Positions 1-64,000 of a DNA stretch of 64,000 nt are shown here, piece after piece. Position 1 is the first letter of the stretch; each line of letters opens with the position of its first letter. Origin of the DNA: an uncultured Chlamydiae bacterium. GTDB taxonomy: Bacteria > Chlamydiota > Chlamydiia > Chlamydiales > SM23-39. The notes under the pieces are model-generated. The model was not told the origin of the DNA, made no database searches, and saw only the letters and a program-made list of their open reading frames with translations. The DNA is taken from contig CAVSSM010000001.1 in NCBI GenBank assembly GCA_963730605.1, positions 608,001 to 672,000 of the forward strand. Direction: 5' to 3'. A program made the position numbers and the translations under genes.

Positions 1-58
1 GAACCTATGAGAAGCTTTCTGAACATGGGCAAGGCTTTTTCCAACGATTTTAGCTCTG

Positions 59-1294
59 TACTACAGCGTTTCATTAATTTTGCCAATTGTGGGGTAAAGC
101 TTTTTTAGCTTGATTCTTGCGTCCTCAACTGTGAAGCGCCAGTCTATAACATGCGCATCCTTGTTTCTGCCCTCTAGCCAGGAGGCAACTTCTTTTTTAA
201 CCTCGACTATGTCTCTTAGGCGTCGGTTTAAACATTGCCTGGAAAGGTGGCTTAATTCGATTTCTGCCATGTTTAACCAGCTCCCATGTTTCGGCGTATA
301 ACGAAATTCCAGACGGTCTACGATCCTTTTCGCCTCTTTGGGCGGCAGAAGCTCATAAAGAGCAGCACCTGTATGGATATTTAAATTATCGCAGACCAAG
401 AGGATCTTTTTTGCCTTGGGATAATGCTCCTCTACAAGTTTCTGTATATGTTTGGCCCAATCCAATCGAGTCCTTCTCTCCGAAACATCAATGTATCGTT
501 TCCCTGTTAGTGGCTCAAAACTCAGCAGAATATTACTCACGCCATTGCGCTCATATCCTGTATCAAAGCGTTCAACCTTACCTCGTTTTGCTGGAATGTT
601 ATCCAGCTTTCCTGCCTCGTGTTGCTTACTCGACTCATCCATGCAAATCATTGGATATTCTGGATTGTATGGGCACTTATAGAGGCCTAACACATTTTCC
701 ATTCGGCAAACAAAGTCAGCGTTTTCCTCAGGAGGAATACACCATTCTTTCTTTAGCCAGGGCTTAAGTTCATTTTTTTTAAAGTGCGATGGACTGTGCT
801 TCTGGAAATAGAATCAATAACTTCTAGCTGAACCAGTCTTTCGCTTAACAATCTCAAGGTCCATTCTTTGCGCCCTTCCGGAGGGGCCCCGCAACATATG
901 GCAACCAGATGGGCTTCTTGATCACCATCGAGTTTTCTTGGTTTGTATTGGCGATGTTTTTTTCGGTGCAAAGCAGCTTCCAGTCCATCGTTTGCGAAAG
1001 ATTCTCTGACTCGATGTACAGTGCGTTCGTGAATATTCAACCCTGCCGCAATAGCTTTTGCTCTCAAACCCGGCCCCTCTTCACCAGAATCTGCCTGCAA
1101 TAGTATTCGAGCATGAGTGATTGTTTTTGCCTTCTGCTTTCCTTTATGCACAACTTCGAGTAATTGCTTGCGCTGACTAGGTGTTAACTTGACTTTATAC
1201 TTCTTTCGCATACCTGCACTCCCACGAATTTTACAAGGCGTCAAGTATATTTTTTATCAAGAAATTATGTCAAAATTAATGAAACGCTGTAGTA
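59..1294 (-). mobile_element. IS630-family insertion sequence, apparently intact (61-1292) with TA target duplication
   Basis: Perfect terminal inverted repeats TA-CTACAGCGTTTCATTAATTTTG (59-82) and CAAAATTAATGAAACGCTGTAG-TA (1271-1294); encloses an HTH ORF and a DDE ORF. Confidence 0.93.
61..1244 (-). CDS. IS630 transposase in two ORFs (753-1244 HTH; 61-~780 DDE) joined by a probable programmed -1 frameshift
   Basis: Motifs ICMDES, VCDNLNIH, YTPKHGSWLNMAEIE; A8 run near 773-780, and the -1 frame continues KKNELKPWLKKEWCIP. Confidence 0.9.
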
Positions 1295-1810
1295 CAAAGT
1301 CCAATCCCATAACCTGCATCGCGGTTCTGACTCTCTTTTGGCCTGCGAAAAATTCTTGTGATTTCATCGCTACTGTCATCCGCCGCCGCCCGTAATAGAG
1401 ATGCTGAAGATACTCCTCATCGATCGCACGCATGAGTAGCAAAGCCGCTTCTGAAGGTTTTCTTGGCTCATAGTATAACCCTGAGCGGCCAACGCCGAGA
1501 AGTTCACACTGCTCCCTCTTGGAGAATCGGCCTTCTCTTTCGCCTCTTCACTCGTCTTAGAGGCTTTTCTGGACTTTTCAAAAATCTGAACCCCCATCTC
1601 TAAGAAATGCTTTTTCCAATCGGAGAGCACTATGGGGTGTACCCCAAATTCTCCAGCGAGCTGCGTTGCCGTTTTCTCTCCCTTACTTCCATCACCACCT
1701 TGAGCTTGACTCAGGCGAATGCTTCCTCCGAATCCGGGTCATTTTTCTGCCTCCATTTCTTCGGAGGTTATTAGCTTAGACAGTGGTCCGAATTTTTGGG
1801 ACCATTATAC
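1295..1810 (-). pseudogene. Degenerate IS3-family element interrupted by the IS630
   Basis: Broken orfA (MTRIRRKHSPE..KLKVVME..LAGEFGVHP..LSDWKK) and orfB start (AIDEEYLQHLYYGRRRM); IR-like end near 1780-1810. Confidence 0.75.
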
Positions 1811-5064: not shown

Positions 5065-6892
5065 CCTGACTTTGACACTTTGATCACCTAAAAACACATA
5101 AGAATTTGATTCTCAATATCTATCGAAAAAAATATGTTGTGCCTAAATAATTTTATTTTCATAAATATAATTTTGTAGTACATTGTTGTGCCATGTATGT
5201 AAGACTCAAGTCGTCAAAGAGCTCAAGGCACTCTACTCTCCAGATTGTTGAAGGCATTCGGGAGGGGAAAAAAGTTAGGCAGCGAGTAGTTGCATCTCTC
5301 GGCATTGTCAACGATCAAAAAAACCTGAAGAACCTTTTGAAGTTGGCTGAGAGTTTAATTCGGAAAATCGAAGAGCAGGGGCTCTCTGTCGCTCCTAAAG
5401 TTGAGATCAGCAAGCTCTTTCATACCATGACGGTTTACGATGGGTTCGGGACTGTCGTTAGCAGACTGATGCAGCTGACAGGGTTTTCCAAGATCCTTCG
5501 AGAAGCTCAGGGGAAAAACGAGTTCGATCTCGAAGAGACAATCAAACTGATGATCACCCAACGTCTCGATTTACCCAGCAGTAAACTACGAACATACGAG
5601 CGTCAAGTGGACCATGGTTTCGAGGGGATCGATTTGCATCATCTCTATCGGGCAATGGACACGATCGAGCCATTGAATGGTCAGATTCAAGAACAGGCAT
5701 TTAAATCTGCTTGTTCCATAAATAGTTGCCAAGTTGATTGCTTTTTCTTCGATGTAACAACACTGTATTTCGAGAGTATAACGCAAGATGAACTCAAGGA
5801 TTTTGGCTTTAGCAAAGATCAAAAACATCACAACGTACAGATCGTTTTGGCTCTCGTTGTTGATCAAGAGGGACTGCCACTTGCTTACGATACCTTCAAG
5901 GGCAATCTAGCAGAGACAAAAACACTCATCCCCGTACTCGAGTCGCTGAGGAGTCGTTTCTCTGTTCAGAACGTGACTGTGGTTTGCGATAGAGGGCTGG
6001 CAAGTAGTGCAAACGTCCAAGCTCTCCGAGCTGCTCAGTTTCATTACGTCATTGCTACAAAACTCCGTTCCATCTCGAAAAAACTCAAAATCAATGACCT
6101 ATCAGCTTATGTCCCTCTGCCCAACCAAGACGGCATCCCGGAGGCTGAGCGAGTTTTAGTTCGCACTATGGAGCATCCCCAGTATGAGGATGCCCTACTG
6201 ATTGCAACGTACAGTCCAAGCAGAGCAACAAAGGACAAACAGGACCGAGAACGGCTATTGCAAAAACTGCACAATAAAATAACCGATTCTCCAAACGAAG
6301 CCTCCCTTAAAAAAGTGATCAGTAATGCAGGTTATAAAAAATATACTACCGTTAAAACTGGTTCGTCGATCTCTCTCAATCAAGCAGCGATAGATGCCGA
6401 TGCTGCCTGGGATGGTTTTCATGGGATTGCAGTTTCGAATAGTGCAAAGTTGAATACGACAGAAGCGCTGGGGCGCTACCGAGACCTCTGGCATGTTGAA
6501 GAGACATTTCGCGTGGCTAAATCCACTCTTAAAACCAGACCTATTTTTCATTGGGCACCACACAGAATCCAAGCCCACATCCTCCTCTGTTTTATTACCC
6601 TATTTTTCGAGAGATTTTTGGAGGTTCTCCTACGACAGAAAAGCACGCCGCTTACGCCGGATAGAATCAGGTACTCTCTCTCAAAAGTTCATACGATGTA
6701 TTTCAAAGACTCAACCACAGACAAACAAGGAAAAATGGAATCCAGTCTCCCTGAGGATGCTGAGAATATTTTCGTAGCATTGGGAATTTCAGCAGAACGC
6801 ACAACCGGAATGAACAACGGATGTTGTGCCTAAATTTTCGTTCTTATCTATTTGTAATCTAATGACTTATCCTAACAAGTGTCAAAGTCAGG
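5065..6892 (+). mobile_element. IS1634-family insertion sequence
   Basis: Perfect 16-bp TIRs CCTGACTTTGACACTT (5065-5080) and AAGTGTCAAAGTCAGG (6877-6892). Confidence 0.9.
5193..6833 (+). CDS. IS1634-family DDE transposase
   Basis: FFDVTTLYFE, FGFSKD, VVCDRG, YRDLWHVEETFRVAKS, RPIFHW..RIQAH. Confidence 0.92.
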   Translation: MYVRLKSSKSSRHSTLQIVEGIREGKKVRQRVVASLGIVNDQKNLKNLLKLAESLIRKIEEQGLSVAPKVEISKLFHTMTVYDGFGTVVSRLMQLTGFSKILREAQGKNEFDLEETIKLMITQRLDLPSSKLRTYERQVDHGFEGIDLHHLYRAMDTIEPLNGQIQEQAFKSACSINSCQVDCFFFDVTTLYFESITQDELKDFGFSKDQKHHNVQIVLALVVDQEGLPLAYDTFKGNLAETKTLIPVLESLRSRFSVQNVTVVCDRGLASSANVQALRAAQFHYVIATKLRSISKKLKINDLSAYVPLPNQDGIPEAERVLVRTMEHPQYEDALLIATYSPSRATKDKQDRERLLQKLHNKITDSPNEASLKKVISNAGYKKYTTVKTGSSISLNQAAIDADAAWDGFHGIAVSNSAKLNTTEALGRYRDLWHVEETFRVAKSTLKTRPIFHWAPHRIQAHILLCFITLFFERFLEVLLRQKSTPLTPDRIRYSLSKVHTMYFKDSTTDKQGKMESSLPEDAENIFVALGISAERTTGMNNGCCA

Positions 6893-7451
6893 ATTAGACC
6901 AAGATACCCTTGCACTGCGCGTCGCAAAAAAGAAAGGTGCATCTTCATGGAAAAAACCGGTTCTATATACTACTCTTACAACAATCGCAGGATTAGCGAC
7001 AGCCTATCTCTTTTATCAATTGGGTCGTTCTCAAGCTAATTCTTGCCCTGTGTGCACATGCCCGGAAGCTTCCAAACTGCAATCAGAACTATCAAAATGC
7101 CAACAAAAAATACCGGACATTTCCAAACTGCAATCAGAACTATTAAAATGGCAACAAAAAATACCGGACATTTCCAACCTGCAATCAGAATTATCAACAT
7201 ACCAACAAAAGTTCAATAAATGCAAAGACGTCCTCACTAGATTCCGAGACACATGCGAAGACGCCCTCAATAGATACGAAGACGCCTTCACTAGATACGA
7301 AGACGCCTTCACTGGATACAAAGACGCCTTCACTGGATACAAAGGCGCCTTCACTGGATACAAAGACATCTTCAATGTATGCATGGCCTCACACACTGAG
7401 ACTATTGCGGACATCAATAGGATTAGGCTTTCATTACCCAGGGTTAAGTAG
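6879..7451 (+). CDS. Membrane-anchored coiled-coil repeat protein, probably 5'-truncated by IS1634
   Basis: One hydrophobic helix (VLYTTLTTIAGLATAYLFY), 17-aa and 7-aa repeats; the ORF start lies inside the IS TIR. Confidence 0.55.
   Translation: MSKSGLDQDTLALRVAKKKGASSWKKPVLYTTLTTIAGLATAYLFYQLGRSQANSCPVCTCPEASKLQSELSKCQQKIPDISKLQSELLKWQQKIPDISNLQSELSTYQQKFNKCKDVLTRFRDTCEDALNRYEDAFTRYEDAFTGYKDAFTGYKGAFTGYKDIFNVCMASHTETIADINRIRLSLPRVK
7070..7382 (+). repeat. Coding tandem repeats: about 3 x 51 bp and about 6 x 21 bp
   Basis: TTCCAAACTGCAATCAGAACTA.. units (7070-7210) and GAAGACGCCTTCACT(A/G)GATAC units (7257-7382). Confidence 0.9.
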
Positions 7452-16858: not shown

Positions 16859-18322
16859 TTAAATATTTTTGCTCACAATTTCAGCGATTGCTTTGCGGTT
16901 GATTTTGTGGCCATTTTTGGGCAATTCATCATTGATGAAGAGAAAGCGGATAGGGATTTTGAACTTCGGAAGATGCTCGAGAAGGGCGCTTTTCAGGTAG
17001 GCGGGGTCTTTAGCTCGGGTGGACGCCACGAGGACCGCGAGCGGACGCTTGCCGAATTCAGGGTCGTCAACGGGGACCACCGCAGCTTCGAAAACATCCG
17101 GCAGTAAGAGGAGCTGCTGTTCGATCTCTTCGGGCTGGATATTTTCTCCCCCCGAGATGAACTGCCAGTCAATTCTACCCAAAACGGTCAGCCCGTCGTC
17201 TGACATCCGTCCAAGGTCCCCGGTCGCAAACCAGCTATCTTGATCAAACGGCTTTGAGATTCGCCCCTCTTCCCAGTAGCCCTCAAAGAGGCACTTTCCC
17301 CGCACGAGGATCTCGCCGATCTTCCCCTTCCCCAAAGACGATGCGTCTTTGGGGGCCCCTGTGGGGGAAAGGCGAAGTTCCCGTTCGGGAAGAGGAAAGC
17401 CCAAGGGGACCCCGAAGTCGCATCGACTTTGGGGTTGGGGAAAAAAAGATTTAGCGCCTACAGTGACAAGCGATCCCATTTCAGTCAGACCGTAGGACAG
17501 ATAGCAGGGAAGATGTTCAGGAAAAGAAGAGATGGGGGCGCCGCCGATCAGCAGGCACCGAAGATTTTTGTAGACGGGCGATTTCCGGTAAAGCTGGGCC
17601 GGCACGGCTGAAATGTGGGTGATTTCGGGGTCTTTCTCATCGAGGACAACAGTGGCAAGCGCTAAAGTAGAGCGTATAAGGATGCCGATCCCGCCTACAT
17701 GGTAAAGGGGGAGGTTGAGAAGCCAACGGTCCCCGATCCGTAACCCAAGCCATTTGGCAAGAGGCGCGGCGTTCGAGAGGAGATTAGAGAGCGATAGAAC
17801 GGCAATTTTTGGGAGAGCGGTCGAGCCCGAGGTGAAGAGGAGCGCCGCCGGGAAGGAAAGGGGAGGGTAGCGGTTCATGCGGAGGCGCGGGGAAAGGGGG
17901 GAAAAAGGGAGAAAAGAAAGGGGCCCCCGAAGTCGCATCGACTTTGGGGAAAAAAGGGGCCCCCAATGACGCATCGACTTTGGGGAAAAAAGGGGCCCCC
18001 AATGACGCATCGACTTTGGGGAAAAAGAGTCGATGAAGCAACGGGCGTCGAGGCGAGCGAGCAGGGTTTCGATTTGGGAAGCGGGAAGACGAAGCGATAG
18101 TGGGCAGATCGACGCTCCGATGCGCCAAGCGGCAAAAAATAGGGCTGCCGTTTCGCAAGTTGGGCGGTGCAAAAAAGCGATCCGGTCGCCCGGGCCGATG
18201 CCCGAGGCCTCGAGCGCCCGCGCCATCTTGTCCGCAAGCTCGTCAAGCTCTTGAAAGGTCGTCTTGTCAAAGGCGGGCAGTCGGGGAGCGAGTCTCGCGG
18301 CTTCTTTTAACGGACAGGGCAT
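16859..18322 (-). CDS. menE: o-succinylbenzoate-CoA ligase carrying in-frame REP-like inserts
   Basis: FTSGST..PK, YGLTE, ATGDLG, ISGGENIQPEEIE; located in the men cluster. Confidence 0.9.
   Translation of the reverse strand: MPCPLKEAARLAPRLPAFDKTTFQELDELADKMARALEASGIGPGDRIAFLHRPTCETAALFFAAWRIGASICPLSLRLPASQIETLLARLDARCFIDSFSPKSMRHWGPLFSPKSMRHWGPLFSPKSMRLRGPLSFLPFSPLSPRLRMNRYPPLSFPAALLFTSGSTALPKIAVLSLSNLLSNAAPLAKWLGLRIGDRWLLNLPLYHVGGIGILIRSTLALATVVLDEKDPEITHISAVPAQLYRKSPVYKNLRCLLIGGAPISSFPEHLPCYLSYGLTEMGSLVTVGAKSFFPQPQSRCDFGVPLGFPLPERELRLSPTGAPKDASSLGKGKIGEILVRGKCLFEGYWEEGRISKPFDQDSWFATGDLGRMSDDGLTVLGRIDWQFISGGENIQPEEIEQQLLLLPDVFEAAVVPVDDPEFGKRPLAVLVASTRAKDPAYLKSALLEHLPKFKIPIRFLFINDELPKNGHKINRKAIAEIVSKNI
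17330..17434. repeat. Two REP-like hairpins in opposite orientation inside menE
   Basis: CCCCAAAGACGATGCGTCTTTGGGGGCCCC (17330-17359) and GGGGACCCCGAAGTCGCATCGACTTTGGGG (17405-17434). Confidence 0.85.
17919..18026. repeat. Three tandem 36-bp REP-like units inside menE
   Basis: AGGGGCCCCC..CGCATCGACTTTGGGGAAAAA x3, encoding FSPKSMR(H/L)(W/R)GPL x3. Confidence 0.92.
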
Positions 18323-21643: not shown

Positions 21644-21789
21644 TTTTCGGTTCTTTTGAGCCGATTTTCGATTCAAGACTTGGGGGGCAATATCGACAAC
21701 AGTATATGGCCCCCCAAGCTTTGAAGTCGAAAAGCGGCCAAAATAATCCAAAAACTCGGGCGTTCCCTCACTTTGTAGACACCCTCTAA
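21644..21789. mobile_element. Partial family D MITE, inverted relative to 2669-2849
   Basis: Near-identical reverse complement of 2672-2815; ends TTTGTAGACACCCTC|TAA. Confidence 0.85.
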
Positions 21790-21809
21790 ACTAAATTGGG
21801 AGAAATTGA

Positions 21810-25727: not shown

Positions 25728-26422
25728 CGCTTCTCCCCTAAATATAAAGTGACGACGCCAAGCGCCATTGGAATTTGCCGAGACGTGAGGGAGGCGCTTT
25801 TCATTAAAGATAAGAAGGCGCCGCCGCTTGGGAAAGTTTCGATCGTCTCGTTCAAATAGCGGTAGGCTGCTCTATTTTTGGAAAAAAATCCGCCAACGTG
25901 AGGAAGGATGCGGCGCAAATAGAAGAGATGGAGCGTTTTCAAGGGCTTTGGCGGCAAGGAAAATTCCAAGATAAGACACCTTCCGCCGGGTTTCAGGACA
26001 CGGGCAATTTCTTTGAGCGCGGCACTCGGATCGGACACGTTGCGGATCCCGAAAGAAAACGTCGCCGCATCGAAAGAGCTATCCCTAAAGGGGAGCCGCA
26101 AAGCGTCGGCGCGCTGAAATTTGACTTTTGTTTTGTAAGGTTTCGATCCGATTTTGGCCTGGGCAATTTCGAGCATGAAAGAGGCAAGGTCGATGCCGAC
26201 CGCGGACCGGATGTGGGCGTCGCTCTCCATGCAGGCGATGAGCTGATCCCCTGTCCCTGTCGCTATGTCGAGGAGATCCAGATTTTTTCGCTCTGGCAGG
26301 TGCAGGGCGGCACGCCTTCTCCAACCGCGGTCCATCCCAAAGGATAGGATCGAGTTGATCCGGTCATAGGTCGCTGAGATCGCATCGAACATTTTCCAGA
26401 CGTTTTCCCGGGAGTGGGTCAT
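25724..26422 (-). CDS. menG: Demethylmenaquinone methyltransferase
   Basis: MFDAIS..YD..N..LSFG, LDIATGTGD, FGIRNV, RVLKPGG...ILEFS. Confidence 0.93.
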   Translation of the reverse strand: MTHSRENVWKMFDAISATYDRINSILSFGMDRGWRRRAALHLPERKNLDLLDIATGTGDQLIACMESDAHIRSAVGIDLASFMLEIAQAKIGSKPYKTKVKFQRADALRLPFRDSSFDAATFSFGIRNVSDPSAALKEIARVLKPGGRCLILEFSLPPKPLKTLHLFYLRRILPHVGGFFSKNRAAYRYLNETIETFPSGGAFLSLMKSASLTSRQIPMALGVVTLYLGEKR

Positions 26423-28083
26423 GCGGTTGCCTCTTGCTCGGCGGTTCTAGTGTTCGCAGCAAGGAGACCCGCCGCAAGGAAAAATGGGAGCTTCCCTTGC
26501 TGAAAGAGGAGCGGGTAAAAATCGCAGCCCCCGATGAAAAGAAAGGCGATAAAAATAGCGGTCAAAGAGGCAGTGAGGGGGGTAAGGGGTGTGTGGCTCG
26601 CCGCCCAAAGCAAGGAGAAAATGAAGAGGAGAAACGCGGAAAGAGATAGAAGACCCGTTTCTCCAGCCAAGTAGAGATAGATATTATGAGTGGCGCTCGA
26701 CGCTGGGAATTCCTTGCCCCCGAAAGGCTTTTGGGGGAGATAATCAAGGCCGCGGATCGAGAGCTGGTCAAACCCGGCGCCAAAAAGGGGAAAGTCTTTG
26801 ATGACTTGGAGCGCCAAGTTTTGATAGGAGATCCGAAGAGCGTCCGACCCTTGCGCAACCCCATTGTAATTCACGATCCCGCCGCGATCCTTGATTTGGG
26901 TCTGAAGGACAAGAAAGCTAAAAAGGATGGAGAAGGTTATTGTAAGGGCAGGAAGCCGGATCGACTTCCAGAGGAAACGTAAACCATTTTGCCTCAAATG
27001 GAGACCGAACCAGGCCAGGGTGCCGAGCATCAAACTAAAAAGCGCTGACCGGGAAAACGTTAGACTCATCGCGAAGAATTGGATGGGAATCATCAGTGCC
27101 GCTGCAAGACGCCACTTTGGGCGGGAAAAAAGCGAATAAGCCGCAAGGATTGACATGCTTAAATACCCGCCCAGGACGTTTGGGTGCGGGAAGGTGCCTG
27201 AAGGTCGGATCACTTCGCGCGGCTGCACGCCTAAGTTGTTATCGAACAGCCAAATGCGTCCCGAATCGACACCAAATACAGGAAAGCTGGACGGCTCGCT
27301 GAAGAGGCGGAGGCCAAGAGGCCCTTGAATTGCGTATTGGGCGATCGCGAGGCCCGATTGGATGAGCGCGGTTCCTATAAGGCATTGGAGCAAAAGAAAA
27401 GAGAGTTTGGATTTGTCCTCTACTCTCCCGTTGGCAAGGAAACAAAAAAGGATAAAGGGGGTGGCAAGTTGCAATAGGCGGATGTAGGGGATAGGGTAAC
27501 TGGCAAAAGGAGAAAGGGCGATCGAAATCAAAGCGCAAAGAAAAACGGTCCAAAGAAAAACGGCGCCTCTAGGTATGAAGAATCGTCTCAAAGGGATGCG
27601 GAACGCAAAAAGGGCAATGAAGAGGAGCAAAAGAGCGATGACATCGGAAGGGTAGAAATAGATCTTCTTATCGAAGAAGCTCGGCAAAACTAGATTTCCC
27701 GGGATGAGTTTCAGAGAAAAAAAACGGAAGAGCTTGTCGTATTTGTGCTCGAAGGGAATAGCAAAAGCGATAACGCAGAGGAGAAAAAGGGATATACTGC
27801 GCGCGGTTGGCTTCTTAAAATTTGGACGGGCTGCGACTTCGCCAAATCGATCTGCTCCGCGAGAAAAACGGTCCATCCGAGGACCGTTTTTCTCGATTCC
27901 GCAGTCCTCGGAAATATTGCCTTCGGATATTTCCTTCGCCCCGTCCCCAAAAACGATGCGTTGTTTGGGGGCCCCTGGGGAGGTCGGTCGGACCGCTTCG
28001 CTTCGATTTTGCTTTGTCTCGCTTGCGTTCAAATTTAAAAATCCTTCCCGCGCGCAGTATAGACGCCGCCAAAACATAAACAC
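26419..28083 (-). CDS. O-antigen ligase (Wzy_C/WaaL-like) membrane protein with an 89-aa in-frame insert
   Basis: Polytopic; GTFPHPNVLGG, TFSRSA, P.FGAG, HNIYLYLAGETG; probable start at ATG 28077. Confidence 0.85.
   Translation of the reverse strand: MFMFWRRLYCAREGFLNLNASETKQNRSEAVRPTSPGAPKQRIVFGDGAKEISEGNISEDCGIEKNGPRMDRFSRGADRFGEVAARPNFKKPTARSISLFLLCVIAFAIPFEHKYDKLFRFFSLKLIPGNLVLPSFFDKKIYFYPSDVIALLLLFIALFAFRIPLRRFFIPRGAVFLWTVFLCALISIALSPFASYPIPYIRLLQLATPFILFCFLANGRVEDKSKLSFLLLQCLIGTALIQSGLAIAQYAIQGPLGLRLFSEPSSFPVFGVDSGRIWLFDNNLGVQPREVIRPSGTFPHPNVLGGYLSMSILAAYSLFSRPKWRLAAALMIPIQFFAMSLTFSRSALFSLMLGTLAWFGLHLRQNGLRFLWKSIRLPALTITFSILFSFLVLQTQIKDRGGIVNYNGVAQGSDALRISYQNLALQVIKDFPLFGAGFDQLSIRGLDYLPQKPFGGKEFPASSATHNIYLYLAGETGLLSLSAFLLFIFSLLWAASHTPLTPLTASLTAIFIAFLFIGGCDFYPLLFQQGKLPFFLAAGLLAANTRTAEQEATA
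27793..28061. mobile_element. TA-flanked MITE (family A) inserted in frame
   Basis: Perfect ends TATACTGCGCGCGG and CCGCGCGCAGTATA; 265 bp + TA = 267 bp = 89 codons; second copy at 63799-64000. Confidence 0.93.
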
Positions 28084-29626: not shown

Positions 29627-29790
29627 TATACCGAAACAACCTGAAGAATCGGGAATTTGACAAGGAGGCTCCTCAGAATTTGTGTTCGGAGCAAGCGACC
29701 ATTGCGCGTGCGCAAGGCGCGATTGAGAACAAAAATTCTGAGGTAAAGCCGACGCAGTCAAAAACCGATTCTTCAGGTTGTTTCGGTATA
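29627..29790. mobile_element. TA-flanked MITE-like element
   Basis: Perfect 26-bp IR TATACCGAAACAACCTGAAGAATCGG; ends related to 2897-3070. Confidence 0.88.
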
Positions 29791-38612: not shown

Positions 38613-38776
38613 TATACCGCGCCCACTCATTTTGAGTGAATTTCGTTGAGCGCCTTTTACGCCCCAGCGCATTGCTCGATCTTGCTAACATCCTAAAGTT
38701 TACGGCGATCTCCGCAACGCTACTGGAGCGCAAAATCCGCTATCAAAATTCACACAACCTAAGCGGGCGCGGTATA
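38613..38776. mobile_element. TA-flanked MITE-like element directly after the gyrA stop
   Basis: Ends TATACCGCGCCC and GGGCGCGGTATA, extending imperfectly to about 30 bp. Confidence 0.78.
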
Positions 38777-54936: not shown

Positions 54937-56213
54937 GGGTTCTTTATCTCTTTTGCCACCGCGGTGACATGGCCGTCATGCAGCCTGGCGATGAAGGTTT
55001 GGTTGGGTTGCAAAGACTTGGCTGAAAGGATAATCGAAGAGTCCTTTTCCATGAAGAGGATTGCATATCCTTTTTTGAGAACGTTATTGGGATTTAGAGA
55101 TCGGAGGTGTTCCCAAACCGCGGCAAGCCTTTCTCTTTTTTGGGAGACAATCATCTTGGCGGCGAATGTCATACGCCCTTCCAGAGGAGCGAAGCGATCA
55201 GAGAAATTTTTCACGCGCTCGCGGGGATCGAGCGCCCTTAACGCAAGGCGGGCGGAGTCGAGCTGTTGCATAGGCTGAGAGAGGATCGAAAGAGGAAAGC
55301 GGAAAATTGGGTGGGTCTTAAGCGCAAGGAGCCTTTCTTTTGCGTTGCCGAACTTGTGCCGGATAAATTGCCTGCCCGCTTGGACGGAACTCGAGAGCGC
55401 TTGGAGCAGATTGGCTTGCTCGGCAATCACGATTTCCGCCGCGGCGGAAGGGGTGGGAGCGCGCACATCGGCGACCCAGTCGGCCATCGTAAAGTCGGTC
55501 TCGTGGCCGACCGCCGAAATGACCGGGATTTTTGATTCGAAAATCGCTTTTGCCACGATCTCTTCGTTAAAAGCCCATAGGTCTTCAATGCTCCCGCCCC
55601 CTCTTGCTACGATCATGACATCGACGAGGTTCATCTGGTTGAATTCGGCAATGGCGCGGGCAATCTCCTGTGGGGCTTTATCGCCTTGGACCCGCACTGG
55701 GTTCAAGAGCAAATGAAAATTTGGAAATCGCCTTTTTAGTACATTCAAGATGTCCTTGATGACAGCCCCGGTTGGGCTCGTCACGACCCCGATCCGTTTA
55801 GGAAATTTAGGAAGCGGTTTTTTTTTCTCCGGGTCGAACCAGCCGCGTGAGGCGAGCTCAACTTTCAGCTGATGGAATTTCATAAGCAGCTCCCCCATGC
55901 CGAGGAATTGGAGTTCCCGAACAATGACCTGGTACTGGCCGCGAGGTGCATAAAGGCTAAGCTCGCCGGTTGCGATCACCTGGTCGCCGTCTTTCGGCAT
56001 CCTGGAGAGACGCGCTGCGCTTCCGCGGAAGAGGACGGCCGATACCTGGGCGCCCGCGTCTTTCATGCTAAAATAGAGATGGCCGGAGGATTGCAGCTTG
56101 AAATTGCTGATCTCTCCTTTGACCGAAAGGCCGCGAAAATTTGGCTCGAGGACCATTTTGATTGCGGCAGTCAGTTCGGATACGGTCAAAATTTGCATGA
56201 ACCTATCTTCCAA
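54933..56213 (-). CDS. xseA: Exodeoxyribonuclease VII large subunit
   Basis: GEISNF...SGHLYF, RGGGSIEDLWAFN, SAVGHETD, RAPTPSAAAE. Confidence 0.96.
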   Translation of the reverse strand: MEDRFMQILTVSELTAAIKMVLEPNFRGLSVKGEISNFKLQSSGHLYFSMKDAGAQVSAVLFRGSAARLSRMPKDGDQVIATGELSLYAPRGQYQVIVRELQFLGMGELLMKFHQLKVELASRGWFDPEKKKPLPKFPKRIGVVTSPTGAVIKDILNVLKRRFPNFHLLLNPVRVQGDKAPQEIARAIAEFNQMNLVDVMIVARGGGSIEDLWAFNEEIVAKAIFESKIPVISAVGHETDFTMADWVADVRAPTPSAAAEIVIAEQANLLQALSSSVQAGRQFIRHKFGNAKERLLALKTHPIFRFPLSILSQPMQQLDSARLALRALDPRERVKNFSDRFAPLEGRMTFAAKMIVSQKRERLAAVWEHLRSLNPNNVLKKGYAILFMEKDSSIILSAKSLQPNQTFIARLHDGHVTAVAKEIKNP

Positions 56214-56479
56214 TTCTTAATGATTTATTTATGGTCGATTTTGAGGCGATTTTTCGTCGTCGACCGCCCAAAGTAAATATCGGGACGGTGATCTTTACGA
56301 GGGCGGAGGCGCGAAAAGCGCCCAAAAGCGTGCCGTAAAGGGATCGTGAAGAATTGGAGGATAGGTTCATATAGCCTGGGTGAATTTTCAACCAAGCCGT
56401 TATATAAATGCAATCTTCCTTGCCAATAGCGCCCGCGTCCGTTATTCTAATAGGAGTTTTTGAGTAGGAAAATGTCGCG

Positions 56480-58106: not shown

Positions 58107-59128
58107 TGCGCCCAGCAGCGTTGAATACTGGCCTAGAATTTCATGCGCTCGACCATATCGCCCCGCTCGCCGCGGCGCTCCACATGCCGCTGATTACGAC
58201 CGAAGAGCGGAATTTCGAATTAGCCCGGCGCTATTACCCGCAAATCGAAGTTCGGCACATGCCCGATCTAGAATCAAAACTCTCATCTCTCGCTGTTGAG
58301 TTCGATGCCCTTTTCGAGTGTAAATACTGGGCGCCGCATCTCAAATCGCTATTCCAAGAGCTTTATGGGAAAAAGATGCGACTTGTCTTTTGCCCGCATG
58401 GGCAATCGGACAAAGGTTTTATCGCTCCTCTTTTAGCTCCCTATGCAGGACAAGATATCGTTCTTCTCTATGGCGATCTCCACATCCAAATATTGAAAGA
58501 CCTCCAACTCTGGCCAGCGATCTCGAACTATGCGATCATAGGCAACTATCGGCTCCCATTTTATCAAAAATACCAGTCATTTTATGACGCCCTCTTAGAG
58601 AGGGAAGTTCCGGTCGACAAAAAAAATCGAACCCTCCTTTACGCCCCTACCTGGCAAGACGGCGAGGGTGGAAGCTCCTTTTTTCGATATGGGCCAAAGA
58701 TCATTTCCGAGCTGCCCAACGACTGGAACCTGATCGTCAAGGTCCACCCGCTTTTAGAGCAAAGGGATCCGGCCCATTTCTATTCCTGCGCCGTCCAATT
58801 GGAGAAAAAGCCGAATGCGATCCTCATCCATGAATTTCCTCTTGTCTATCCGCTCCTAGCCATTGCGGACGCCTATCTCGGAGACTCTTCGTCTGTCGGC
58901 TATGACTTTCTTTATTTCGAGAGGCCGATCTATTTTCTTCCAACAGGGCGGCCGACAAGGCTCCACTCCTCTGGCCGGGTCATCGATCCGGACAAACCGA
59001 TCTATTCCCAACTCGAGTCCTCCAACCCGTATAGGGAGGAGCAAAGGGCTCTTTACACCTATGCTTTTGGCAAGCCAATCGACGAAGAGACTTTGCGCGC
59101 CCGCATTGAGAGAGTGTCTACAATGTGA
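58106..59128 (+). CDS. CDP-glycerol glycerophosphotransferase-family protein
   Basis: HGQSDK, LYAPTW, VKVHP, D.SSV.YDF. Confidence 0.78.
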   Translation: MRPAALNTGLEFHALDHIAPLAAALHMPLITTEERNFELARRYYPQIEVRHMPDLESKLSSLAVEFDALFECKYWAPHLKSLFQELYGKKMRLVFCPHGQSDKGFIAPLLAPYAGQDIVLLYGDLHIQILKDLQLWPAISNYAIIGNYRLPFYQKYQSFYDALLEREVPVDKKNRTLLYAPTWQDGEGGSSFFRYGPKIISELPNDWNLIVKVHPLLEQRDPAHFYSCAVQLEKKPNAILIHEFPLVYPLLAIADAYLGDSSSVGYDFLYFERPIYFLPTGRPTRLHSSGRVIDPDKPIYSQLESSNPYREEQRALYTYAFGKPIDEETLRARIERVSTM

Positions 59129-59212
59129 GGTTCTGTCGATTTTTCGGTTCTTTTGAGCCGATTTTCGATTCAAGACTTGGGGGGCAATATCGACAACAGT
59201 ACATAGCCCCCA
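59107..59212. mobile_element. Partial family D MITE overlapping the stop codon of 58106-59128
   Basis: TGA|GAGAGTGTCTACAA followed by TTTTCGGTTCTTTTGAGCCGATTTTCGATTCAAGACTTGGGGGGCAATATCGAC. Confidence 0.85.
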
Positions 59213-59234
59213 TATTTTTACTCCCAATATTGTG

Positions 59235-59408
59235 TATAACCTGAGTTTTGGGTTCATTTGTCTATGAGATTCAAGGATATTTCGAGCATATTTTTGCGCT
59301 TTGGAGCCGAGAGCAATATCGGGACGAGCATCTTGCCGAGGCGAAAAGTCAAAAAGATGCCGAAAGAAATTGAAGCTCAGGCAAATGAACCCAAAACTCA
59401 GGTGTATA
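59235..59408. mobile_element. TA-flanked MITE-like element
   Basis: IR TATA(C)ACCTGAGTTTTGGGTTCATTTG at both ends. Confidence 0.85.
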
Positions 59409-59482
59409 CTGTTCCCGCTCAAAAAGTGTGAATCTGCTGGCGTCGGGCAGCCACTGAATTTGTGATCCGCCTGTATCGCTAA
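59405..59482. mobile_element. Truncated copy related to 4739-4989
   Basis: TATACTG..CTCAAAAAGTGTGAATCTGCTGGCGTCGGGCAGCCACTGAATTTG. Confidence 0.72.
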
Positions 59483-61917: not shown

Positions 61918-64000
61918 TTATTTTCTAATCAAATTAAGTTGCCAAGTAAATCGGTCGTCTTTGTCTGTATGGCGATAGGAAAGACGGAGTTTTAGCGAGG
62001 TGGCGATCCAGGTGAAAAGGTCGAGTTGAAATTCGTTATAGGGATCTTCGGTCGATCGGAGAAACCCGTGATGGGACTGGAAATGGCATTCCCAAAAAGG
62101 GGAGAGACGGACAAAAATGTCGGTGAGGAGGGTCAGCCTCCGGTCGGAAAGAGGCGAGGCGAGAAGGTCGCTTTCCGAACGGGTGACGTCGAGGATGAAA
62201 TTTTCATGGTCCGCTTTGCGCCAGTCGTATTGGGAACGGTAGCGCGCTTCCAGGCTAAGCGCAATATTTTCATTGATCGTCCAACGACACCGGGCGTTCA
62301 TGAAGTCGTCCACATGATTCCGGAAGTTCCATGCGTTATGGAAGGATAGATAGACGGAAGCGAGGCGCCATTCGAGCCAAAGGTAGAGGCGGGGGATGAA
62401 CTGGGGAATGGTTGGGTTGGAAAAAAATGCGTTTGCATAGAGATCGGCCGTAAACCACGGTTCAAACACTTTGCTGACTTTTGTAAAAGTAAGACTGCGG
62501 ACCCCTCCCTGGATCTGGTTGATTTGGTTGTAGCCGTCCATGATCGAAAAGATATAGTGGTCATCGGGCCTGACTGTCGGACGGGTCAGGGCCAAAAACC
62601 CGGCATAAGGTTCGATGACATGCTGATTCTGGGAGTAGGACCTAACTCCTCTTGCGGCGAGGTCGGCCCCATAGACAAGGAGGCCAAGGGCTTTTGAGTT
62701 ATGCGATGCGCTATTGGTATAGAGCGTCCCGATCCCGCCGACGTTCGGGGTGAAGGTGACAGGGCCCCAATGGAAAGGGCGATGGAGCCTTTCCCGGATT
62801 TCAATACGCCCCGAGCGGTAATCCATGGGAGGCTTGAGGGTGGGCGTCGTGGCGAGCTGGTCAGAATAGGCGAAATCGAGGTAGGAGGCCTTTAGGAAGA
62901 GGCTAGACAGGATGCCGGTCGGCCCTAAGGTCATGGGTAGCAGATTGAGATAAAAAGTCGGCAAGTCTTGTTTGATCGACTCGAATGTGTTTAACCTAGG
63001 CCGGGCTTTAAAATTGGCGATGCAAAGCGGCGCCGCATGGTAAGCCCAAAAAAGGGTCTGCTGGGCTGTGCCGATTTCGAAATCTTCGCTCCTAAAATCG
63101 CTTGGCATCCGCACATCGCTATATTTATCCCAAGTCAATGCGGTATTGGTCCTCCCATCCTGGCTGCGCCAGTGATGAGCTCCTTCTAAGCGGAAACGGA
63201 ATTGTTTATTGGGCGCTGTTTCGAGCCGGTCTGTTCCTACATAGCTCCGTGTAACGAAGATGCTTTGCCCGTCCGGAGGGAAATATTCGCTTTCGATGGC
63301 TCCTCCCCAACCGGAGCTCCAACGGTATTCCACTCTTCCGAACAGGGCAAAATCACGCCAAGAATAAAGCTGATAGCGCATCCCGGCCCGCAAACCTTGG
63401 CCTCTATCCCAGTTGAGGAAATACCGGACGATCGGATCGCGGTTGCTTTTTTTCAGGTTCAATTTAAAGGAGGGGAGCCAAAAGGTGGGGATTTTATATA
63501 GGCGAAACGCGATGTTTTTCGCGATGAAAAGATCGGAGCTCTTAGCCTCAATGCGGCTCGCATGAAGGTCCCAATCGCTGTCTTTGTTTTCCGAGGCTGT
63601 AATGGAAGCGTTTTCCACCTCATAGCTGCCGTCGGCGTTCAATTCGATCCTCTCTCCCGAGATATACCAAAGGCTGAAAAACGTTTTTCCTTTGAACACG
63701 ACTCCAGTATTTGTCAGGAAATCGTATTCCAGCCTCTCGCCGACAAACACCCGATCTTTGTACTGGATCATCAAGTCGCCGGACGCTTCGATCCGATGTA
63801 TACTGTACGCGGTTGGCTTTTTAAAATTTGGACGGGCTGCGACTTCGTCAAATCGATCTGCTCCGCGAGAAAAACGGTCCATCCGAGGACCGTTTTTCTC
63901 GATTCCGCAGTCCTCGGAAATATTGCCTTCGGATATTTCCTTCGCCCCGTCCCCAAAAACGATGCGTTGTTTGGGGGCCCCTGGGGAGGTCGGTCGGACC
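61918..64000 (-). CDS. LptD/OstA-like outer membrane protein (5' end beyond the window) with an in-frame family A insert
   Basis: Aromatic-rich beta-barrel-like sequence, YDFLTNTG, IPTFWLP; the frame stays open through the element to position 64000. Confidence 0.7.
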   Translation of the reverse strand, partial: VRPTSPGAPKQRIVFGDGAKEISEGNISEDCGIEKNGPRMDRFSRGADRFDEVAARPNFKKPTAYSIHRIEASGDLMIQYKDRVFVGERLEYDFLTNTGVVFKGKTFFSLWYISGERIELNADGSYEVENASITASENKDSDWDLHASRIEAKSSDLFIAKNIAFRLYKIPTFWLPSFKLNLKKSNRDPIVRYFLNWDRGQGLRAGMRYQLYSWRDFALFGRVEYRWSSGWGGAIESEYFPPDGQSIFVTRSYVGTDRLETAPNKQFRFRLEGAHHWRSQDGRTNTALTWDKYSDVRMPSDFRSEDFEIGTAQQTLFWAYHAAPLCIANFKARPRLNTFESIKQDLPTFYLNLLPMTLGPTGILSSLFLKASYLDFAYSDQLATTPTLKPPMDYRSGRIEIRERLHRPFHWGPVTFTPNVGGIGTLYTNSASHNSKALGLLVYGADLAARGVRSYSQNQHVIEPYAGFLALTRPTVRPDDHYIFSIMDGYNQINQIQGGVRSLTFTKVSKVFEPWFTADLYANAFFSNPTIPQFIPRLYLWLEWRLASVYLSFHNAWNFRNHVDDFMNARCRWTINENIALSLEARYRSQYDWRKADHENFILDVTRSESDLLASPLSDRRLTLLTDIFVRLSPFWECHFQSHHGFLRSTEDPYNEFQLDLFTWIATSLKLRLSYRHTDKDDRFTWQLNLIRK
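63799..64000. mobile_element. Family A MITE, second copy (cut by the window edge)
   Basis: Nearly identical to 27793-27994 (about 4 substitutions); same TA boundary, orientation and frame. Confidence 0.92.

Follow-up and report, generated by a model that had tools for sequence, protein, structure and literature searches.

A hairpin MITE in frame in a chlamydial lptD-like gene and the recurring reading of its family in other housekeeping genes

Rickettsia palindromic elements (RPEs) are hairpin repeats of 105-146 bp that, according to the available portions of two publications (PMC2229807, PMC10969869), are fused in frame in 19 genes, and an RPE-bearing guanylate kinase is described in the same texts as both translated and active. 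Frames of MITEs fused to host ORFs, sometimes internally, are also reported in the accessible parts of the literature for QMITE1 and QMITE2 of Coxiella burnetii (PMC5896051) and for ERIC, BOX and BRE (PMC3184786), the QMITE, BOX and BRE fusions being described as in frame. RUP of Streptococcus pneumoniae is a 107-bp intergenic element, listed in the portion available of PMC2229807 without an open frame and with IS630-Spn1 as its partner.

The repeat described here lies in an lptD-like gene of an uncultured Chlamydiae bacterium, whose assembly comprises 2.2 Mb in 12 contigs and is 83% complete. The window, that is, the whole 64,000-nucleotide stretch of DNA that was analysed, corresponds to G000:C1:608001-672000. 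The repeat is very probably a non-autonomous, TA-targeting MITE, moved in trans by IS630 as far as can be judged, that landed in lptD and whose surviving copies have been filtered for a harmless reading. A literature search that covered few subscription journals and no supplements found neither a paper on such an in-frame family in Chlamydiae nor a natural MITE in lptD.

The lptD repeat and its copies

The relevant features, in window coordinates, are these:

61918..64000, minus strand: lptD-like (CT351-like) host gene, 785 aa, running on to C1:672275 (window-equivalent 64275); the ORF, C1:669918-672275, is without stop or frameshift
63799..64000, minus strand: MITE copy in lptD, with 202 of its 269 bp within the window and its far end at G000:C1:672067 (window-equivalent 64067); 89 extra residues follow Ile70
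63799..63812, no strand: terminal TA and 14-bp inverted-repeat arm TATACTGTACGCGG; pairs 14/14 with the far arm and carries two paired changes relative to the other copies
63866..63901, no strand: internal hairpin module, element positions ~68-103, folded on the copy at 27793
63943..63989, no strand: internal hairpin module, G+C-rich and REP-like, at element positions ~145-191; dozens of other genome sites hold look-alikes
27793..28061, minus strand: second full MITE copy, in frame, 5 codons past the ATG of an O-antigen ligase-like gene
26419..28077, minus strand: O-antigen ligase-like gene (552 aa, Pfam Wzy_C), host of the second copy

The lptD repeat is a 269-bp hairpin MITE that carries TA at each end and 14-bp inverted repeats, and its net contribution to the gene is 267 bp, or 89 codons. 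As is characteristic of MITEs, it is short, contains no transposase and is dispersed at unrelated sites (three full copies in this genome and a fourth in the sequence P0003), and both filled and empty sites are found. Its folding, an end-to-end hairpin with three internal hairpins (z-score -7.8), and its match to the second copy (E 2e-127) both exclude chance. The original prediction held that 63799-64000 nearly repeats 27793-27994, starting at the same TA and using the same strand and frame; exactly 4 of the 202 bases differ (63806, 63807, 63820, 63848), and the shared start, strand and frame all hold. The right end, expected about 67 bp past the window, is in that position (G000:C1:672067) but reads GTACAGTATA instead of GCAGTATA, because two paired changes alter both arms. 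Over their full length, the lptD and ligase copies show 8 differences, 4 of them being paired changes that keep the terminal stem perfect. One arm could have been copied onto the other, or the donor could have been a variant; no other copy with the lptD-type end was found in the assembly.

The third full copy (C1:383409-383677) occupies a SprT-like gene, whose Pfam match falls just under the cut-off, in the identical frame, and all three full copies share one strand and one frame relative to their hosts. Terminal inverted repeats match at 14/14 positions in two copies and at 13/14 in the third. The fourth near-identical copy, in P0003, forms the C-terminus of a hydrolase-like protein, the gene for which was not found in this assembly. 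The junction of the ligase copy is bridged by a short-read contig, and the O-antigen ligase gene gave no plasmid match. The peptide of the MITE matched no family in NCBIfam at E 1e-5. Recent mobility, as originally proposed, fits the subfamily (copies 97-99% alike; the fourth copy, in P0003), but the lptD insertion is older than the split from the relative P0004 considered below.

The end-to-end hairpin joins both ends of the element, and the first and last codons at the lptD site are both ATA, as might be expected if the MITE were removed from the message or skipped, through splicing, bypassing or protein splicing, to yield LptD without the insert. Such removal is extremely improbable: it would make the open frame, the 3n length and the preferred reading unneeded, the first codons vary among copies (Leu, Ile, Val, Thr, Ala), the 2 weak Rfam matches lie far below the gathering score, and no intein family matched. 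In the preferred reading the insert would be translated as part of an enlarged LptD that may still function.

Several other repeats accompany this family. Look-alikes of the G+C-rich hairpin occur at window positions 17328-17434 and 17917-18026 and at many further sites, alone, in tandem (C1:317822-318046) or within other MITE families, in the manner of REP modules. MITE-like hairpin repeats of other families are found in the window at 2667-2847, 21644-21790, 29627-29790, 38613-38776, 56209-56372 and 59114-59464. Elsewhere in the genome, G000:C1:719853-721236 and C1:363109-363847 are very long, near-perfect inverted repeats, the former resembling a gene piece duplicated in fold-back form, which could have arisen in assembly. 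A reverse-transcriptase element occurs twice in identical form (G000:C1:286485-288420 and C8:29770-31705) and, judging by its motifs, presumably resembles a group II intron.

The host gene and the insertion site

The host gene was predicted to continue in frame past the window and to reach a signal peptide. It does continue, for 69 further host codons to an ATG, free of stops and frameshifts, and a hydrophobic, signal-like stretch, judged by eye, stands at the ORF start. The LptD identity proposed for it fared less uniformly in profile searches. No LptD domain was found in the host protein by Pfam search, and a sequence profile matched LptD (7omm_A) only at E 0.044, but the NCBIfam model CT351_fam matched at E 5.5e-76 (256.5 bits, under its cut-off of 900) and the predicted structure matches LptD. 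An AlphaFold model, built on an alignment of the host with 28 of 34 orthologues (mean pLDDT 70.6, pTM 0.53), contains the jellyroll and large barrel fold, and its top Foldseek matches are all LptD, the best being 5iv9_A (E 9e-27, probability 1.00, TM 0.47), as against E 3e-6 for the best non-LptD fold; identity to solved LptD structures is 11-13%. CT351 has itself been modelled as LptD-like in the accessible part of a preprint (bioRxiv 10.1101/2025.07.10.664186). The host thus has in common with LptD and the Chlamydia CT351 family the N-terminal jellyroll and large beta-barrel, but it bears an 89-residue mobile-element loop, and its role in LPS transport is a predicted one. LptD is essential in E. 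coli according to the portion available of PMC4986956 and may be so in this organism. The genome also encodes lpxC and two lptF/G genes, all above family cut-off and with open frames. A profile search of its ORFs for the host gene gave one strong match, and no second lptD copy was found in this 83%-complete assembly. The locus L058, considered as a broken lptD, was ruled out; it holds an assembly gap.

The MITE falls in the Ile70 codon (ATA), leaving the Ile doubled and the next strand whole. The loci related to lptD number 37, and most of their records bear the label Chlamydiae, Chlamydiales, Parachlamydiales or 'uncultured bacterium'; 34 of them span the site, and the other three, whose match starts downstream of it, were left out. 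None of the 34 carries the insert, and in several the turn itself is 3-4 residues shorter. At the genus level, lptD was recovered in 4 of 6 other genomes and is empty in all four, some of these being loci already among the 37. The TA on both sides and the net gain of 267 bp fit a 2-bp target-site duplication, which at the lptD site would be a duplication of TA; the orthologues carry other codons there (ATC, ATT, GTG or ACG), and RecD2 was the sole gene for which a relative, just one, showed an empty site with TA. Between lptD orthologues, dN is 0.20 and dS ~2.1, a saturated value that cannot date selection after the insertion.

The suggestion that the insert lies in a jellyroll loop agrees with the model. 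Residues 65-157 have pLDDT <50 and are enclosed by the confident strands 57-64 and 158-172; in an insert-free orthologue, residues 62-63 form a two-residue hairpin turn and the site is residue 66, three residues past the turn. As modelled, the insert is a disordered loop near the tip of a length-variable jellyroll beta-hairpin. Among more distant lptD genes (L237-L240), an acidic, proline-rich extension of ~100-130 residues follows the signal peptide, without MITE ends.

P0004, which comes from a JGI contig of an independent assembly, carries the same insert at the same site, 16 aa shorter and still in frame, within a host part identical at 665 of 692 residues (96%), while P0006, identical at 621 of 692 host residues, has an empty site. 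Judged from these sequences, the insertion dates between the P0006 split and the P0004 split, and the insert is real, inherited and not brand new, because P0004 shares it in a form shortened in frame. A metagenome scan for the DNA of P0004 gave 3 loci, all of them other relatives. It is highly improbable that the insert is a product of misassembly, or that lptD is recently dead or dispensable. To be sure, the genome is repeat-rich, P0007 is probably a chimeric contig at this repeat, and the read evidence, 21 short pieces of contigs drawn from 4 runs within one study, confirms the host sequence piecewise, with no contig bridging the lptD junction by 31 bases and one entering it by 5 bases. A search of sequencing runs listed no RNA run among those with the sequence, a result that has no bearing on expression. 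Against misassembly or gene loss, the insert of P0004 is at the same site but of another internal length, the frame is intact in both, the paired changes are private to the lptD copy, and the genome has LPS genes and yielded no second lptD. P0007 joins the lptD N-terminus to a SprT-type copy and a foreign flank, through chimeric assembly (probable) or recombination between copies. A second, independent lptD insertion was detected at L075:1661-1863 (= L140), where a related 203-bp MITE sits just past the signal peptide in the same reading.

The family, its candidate mobiliser and its reading frame

A hairpin scan of the genome yielded 147 candidate elements, 100 of them with TATAC-type ends, and 78 of these 100 have TA at both ends. 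The other 22 show CA, AA or GA in place of TA at an end, possibly through ageing or near-cognate targets; the 13 printed IS630 copies all have TA at both ends. Eight of the elements belong with the lptD MITE family, 7 as internal in-frame inserts and 1 as a C-terminal fusion, in hosts that include FolC, a dehydrogenase E1 and a YbbR-like protein. Sister families are in frame in RecD2, E2, ZnuA and a sulfatase. Six other host genes were checked for empty sites, and relatives without the insert exist for all six. Further TATAC-ended MITE families occur in frame at L089, L095, L103 and L106 (RlmKL-like, Wzc-like, RecD2, sulfatase), at L092, L102 and L105 (ZnuA) and at L101 (E2), each family with its own recurring reading. 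A genome-wide tally (15 in frame, 20 'disrupting' and 65 unclear, n=100) was judged unreliable and set aside as a test: in many of the 'disrupting' cases fewer than 30 codons remain on one side, and one case proved to be a C-terminal fusion.

A pattern scan of genome contigs matched 92 stretches, from which 80 loci were listed: 31 without a right end, as called by the script, 1 duplicate, 29 outside long ORFs or chance-like, and 19 in long ORFs. The hosts of these 19 include a CopA-type ATPase, DnaX, LptB, PriA, a TolC-family protein, LolCE, RecC and TsaE. Several host records are labelled Verrucomicrobiae; they are taken to be chlamydial, because the four such genomes checked carry a CT351-like gene at 43-44% identity. 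A profile from 10 MITE peptides matched 170 cluster representatives at E <=0.001, and 19 of 43 longer matches scanned have a Pfam family, e.g., Pth, DapB, PyrI and TsaD; a cadherin-repeat protein among the 19 is probably a chance match. One insertion site just upstream of lptB is common to two genomes (G000:C1:495566-495801 and L132), where a 72-bp in-frame module sets the two elements apart; judged by eye, they look more conserved than the flanking coding DNA.

The likely mobiliser, as sequence comparison suggests, is an intact IS630 present in 14 copies of 99.9-100% identity (NF033545, 217.9 bits vs a cut-off of 100). An intact 352-codon frame together with TA-TAC ends is seen in thirteen copies; the 14th lies at a contig end, and its frame is identical. 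At its left end, this IS630 agrees with the MITE at 10 of the first 13 bases, with the lptD copy at 9 of 13 and with a sister MITE family at 16 bases. Other IS630-like elements with different ends are also found in the genome. Two multi-copy insertion sequences with inverted-repeat ends lie in the window (54-1296 and 5065-6893), one IS630-like in two frames and one with a transposase ORF of ~550 aa.

It had been suggested that only one reading of the insert is tolerated. Across the family the preference is strong: 26 of the 27 genic copies (19 in other genomes and 8 here) use one reading vs 10.5 expected when the open frames of each copy are weighted by the TA phases of genes in this genome (nominal P 6e-12, which is overstated, the copies being hand-picked and related, one site being common to two genomes and two copies having a single open frame). 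Two of the six readings of the lptD MITE are open, however, the opposite-strand second frame being open in all 3 full copies; agreement between two copies is thus of little weight, and exceptions exist in L145 (the 1 of 27) and a YbeY-like gene. Because two readings are open, stops alone do not force the frame. Three later cases came from this genome. A KdsB-like gene, as we assume from its motifs (G000:C1:726592-727485, plus strand), ends in a decayed MITE, and another gene (G000:C9:153455-154447, plus strand) keeps only a right-hand remnant mid-gene, both in the usual reading; the gene taken, also by motifs, to be YbeY-like (G000:C1:687205-687798, minus strand) has a ~164-bp in-frame insert from a sister subfamily that keeps the orientation and changes the phase. 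This last exception, the paired changes that maintain a perfect terminal stem and the seemingly greater conservation, by eye, of the element upstream of lptB would suit an orientation bias that acts not via the peptide but in DNA or RNA, through the direction of insertion with respect to transcription or through termination or RNase cleavage in one orientation. An explanation of this kind is nevertheless improbable, in that it leaves the phase preference unexplained: a second same-strand frame is open in 6 copies and used by none, and both MITE strands fold alike (-117 and -123 kcal/mol).

The reading in use gives a hydrophilic, acid-rich peptide (GRAVY -0.96, 16% D+E), in contrast to the main unused reading (GRAVY +0.09) and to another with 27% K+R. 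Among copies of three subfamilies, 15 changes are synonymous, 30 are non-synonymous and none creates a stop, where the fractions expected are 0.29, 0.68 and 0.03; by these counts the peptide sequence appears to drift near-neutrally, with no selection on it visible. A rival possibility, held only tentatively, is that the family has become adapted to genes, its lineage keeping one stop-free, hydrophilic frame and 3n modules while genic copies serve as long-lived donors. In this genome, all 8 full family copies catalogued have lengths of 3n+2 and lie in long ORFs, vs 0 of 20 copies of another TATAC family in frame; across genomes, lengths from 113 to 299 bp keep one frame, and internal indels at two shared sites (72 bp and 16 codons) keep it as well. 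A filter on survivors, however, predicts an identical pattern, copies outside long ORFs occur in other genomes, some of them frame-breaking (94, 171 and 229 bp), and the substitution counts reveal no purifying selection on the peptide.

The filtering of survivors remains the preferred explanation and would operate as follows. With an IS630-family transposase probably acting in trans, a MITE would insert at the TA of the ATA (Ile70) codon in lptD and duplicate that TA. Its 267 bp being free of stops in this frame, LptD would gain 89 residues; these would make a disordered, hydrophilic loop where the length-variable periplasmic jellyroll beta-hairpin has its far end, with the next strand intact. 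Insertions themselves would be blind, and the dominance of one reading among genic survivors is proposed to result from the purging of gene-breaking, hydrophobic or very basic ones. The peptide would subsequently drift near-neutrally and shrink via in-frame deletions.

Significance and comparison with known systems

In-frame palindromic inserts have been mainly a Rickettsia story, and the portions of the reviews available give no settled mechanism for them; they are now found in Chlamydiae, with transposon ends and a candidate transposase. The family has enough copies to measure which reading survives. Its copies map insertion-tolerant sites in core proteins, including the jellyroll hairpin of LptD, an antibiotic target, and they account for unusual additional segments in annotated chlamydial proteins, as in the 170 cluster representatives that match the peptide profile. 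A bolder notion, somewhat doubtful at present, is that of a transposon lineage that mainly inhabits housekeeping genes, surviving because it reads as a harmless disordered peptide and still being moved by an intact IS630. Such a lineage would differ from introns and inteins, which survive by splicing out. If this were true, an RPE-type element with an identifiable transposase would make the spread of coding palindromes and the evolution of 'safe' frames directly testable.

Compared with RUP, as far as the accessible text describes it, the chlamydial MITE is likewise non-autonomous and probably TA-targeting, and its terminal inverted repeats may be akin to those of a resident IS630, the match with the IS ends being partial; it differs in that most members of its family lie in genes and are coding. 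The mid-gene QMITE insertions described in the part available of PMC5896051 are in hypothetical genes, whereas the chlamydial copies occupy LptD, DnaX, E1, RecC and LolCE-like genes, with one dominant frame.

In profile searches, RPE models matched neither the 90-aa peptide (NCBIfam, E 1e-5) nor the hosts (Pfam). Other differences, within the portions of the RPE literature available, are the phylum, the longer and modular structure of the chlamydial element (113-299 vs 105-146 bp), and its clear TA ends and candidate transposase in the genome, the RPE target duplication being listed as uncertain (PMC2229807, PMC10969869). Both are, as far as those texts go, hairpin repeats of intracellular bacteria that occur in frame in many unrelated conserved genes, encode a recurring peptide and are apparently neutral. 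By analogy, the chlamydial MITE appears to work like the Rickettsia palindromic elements.
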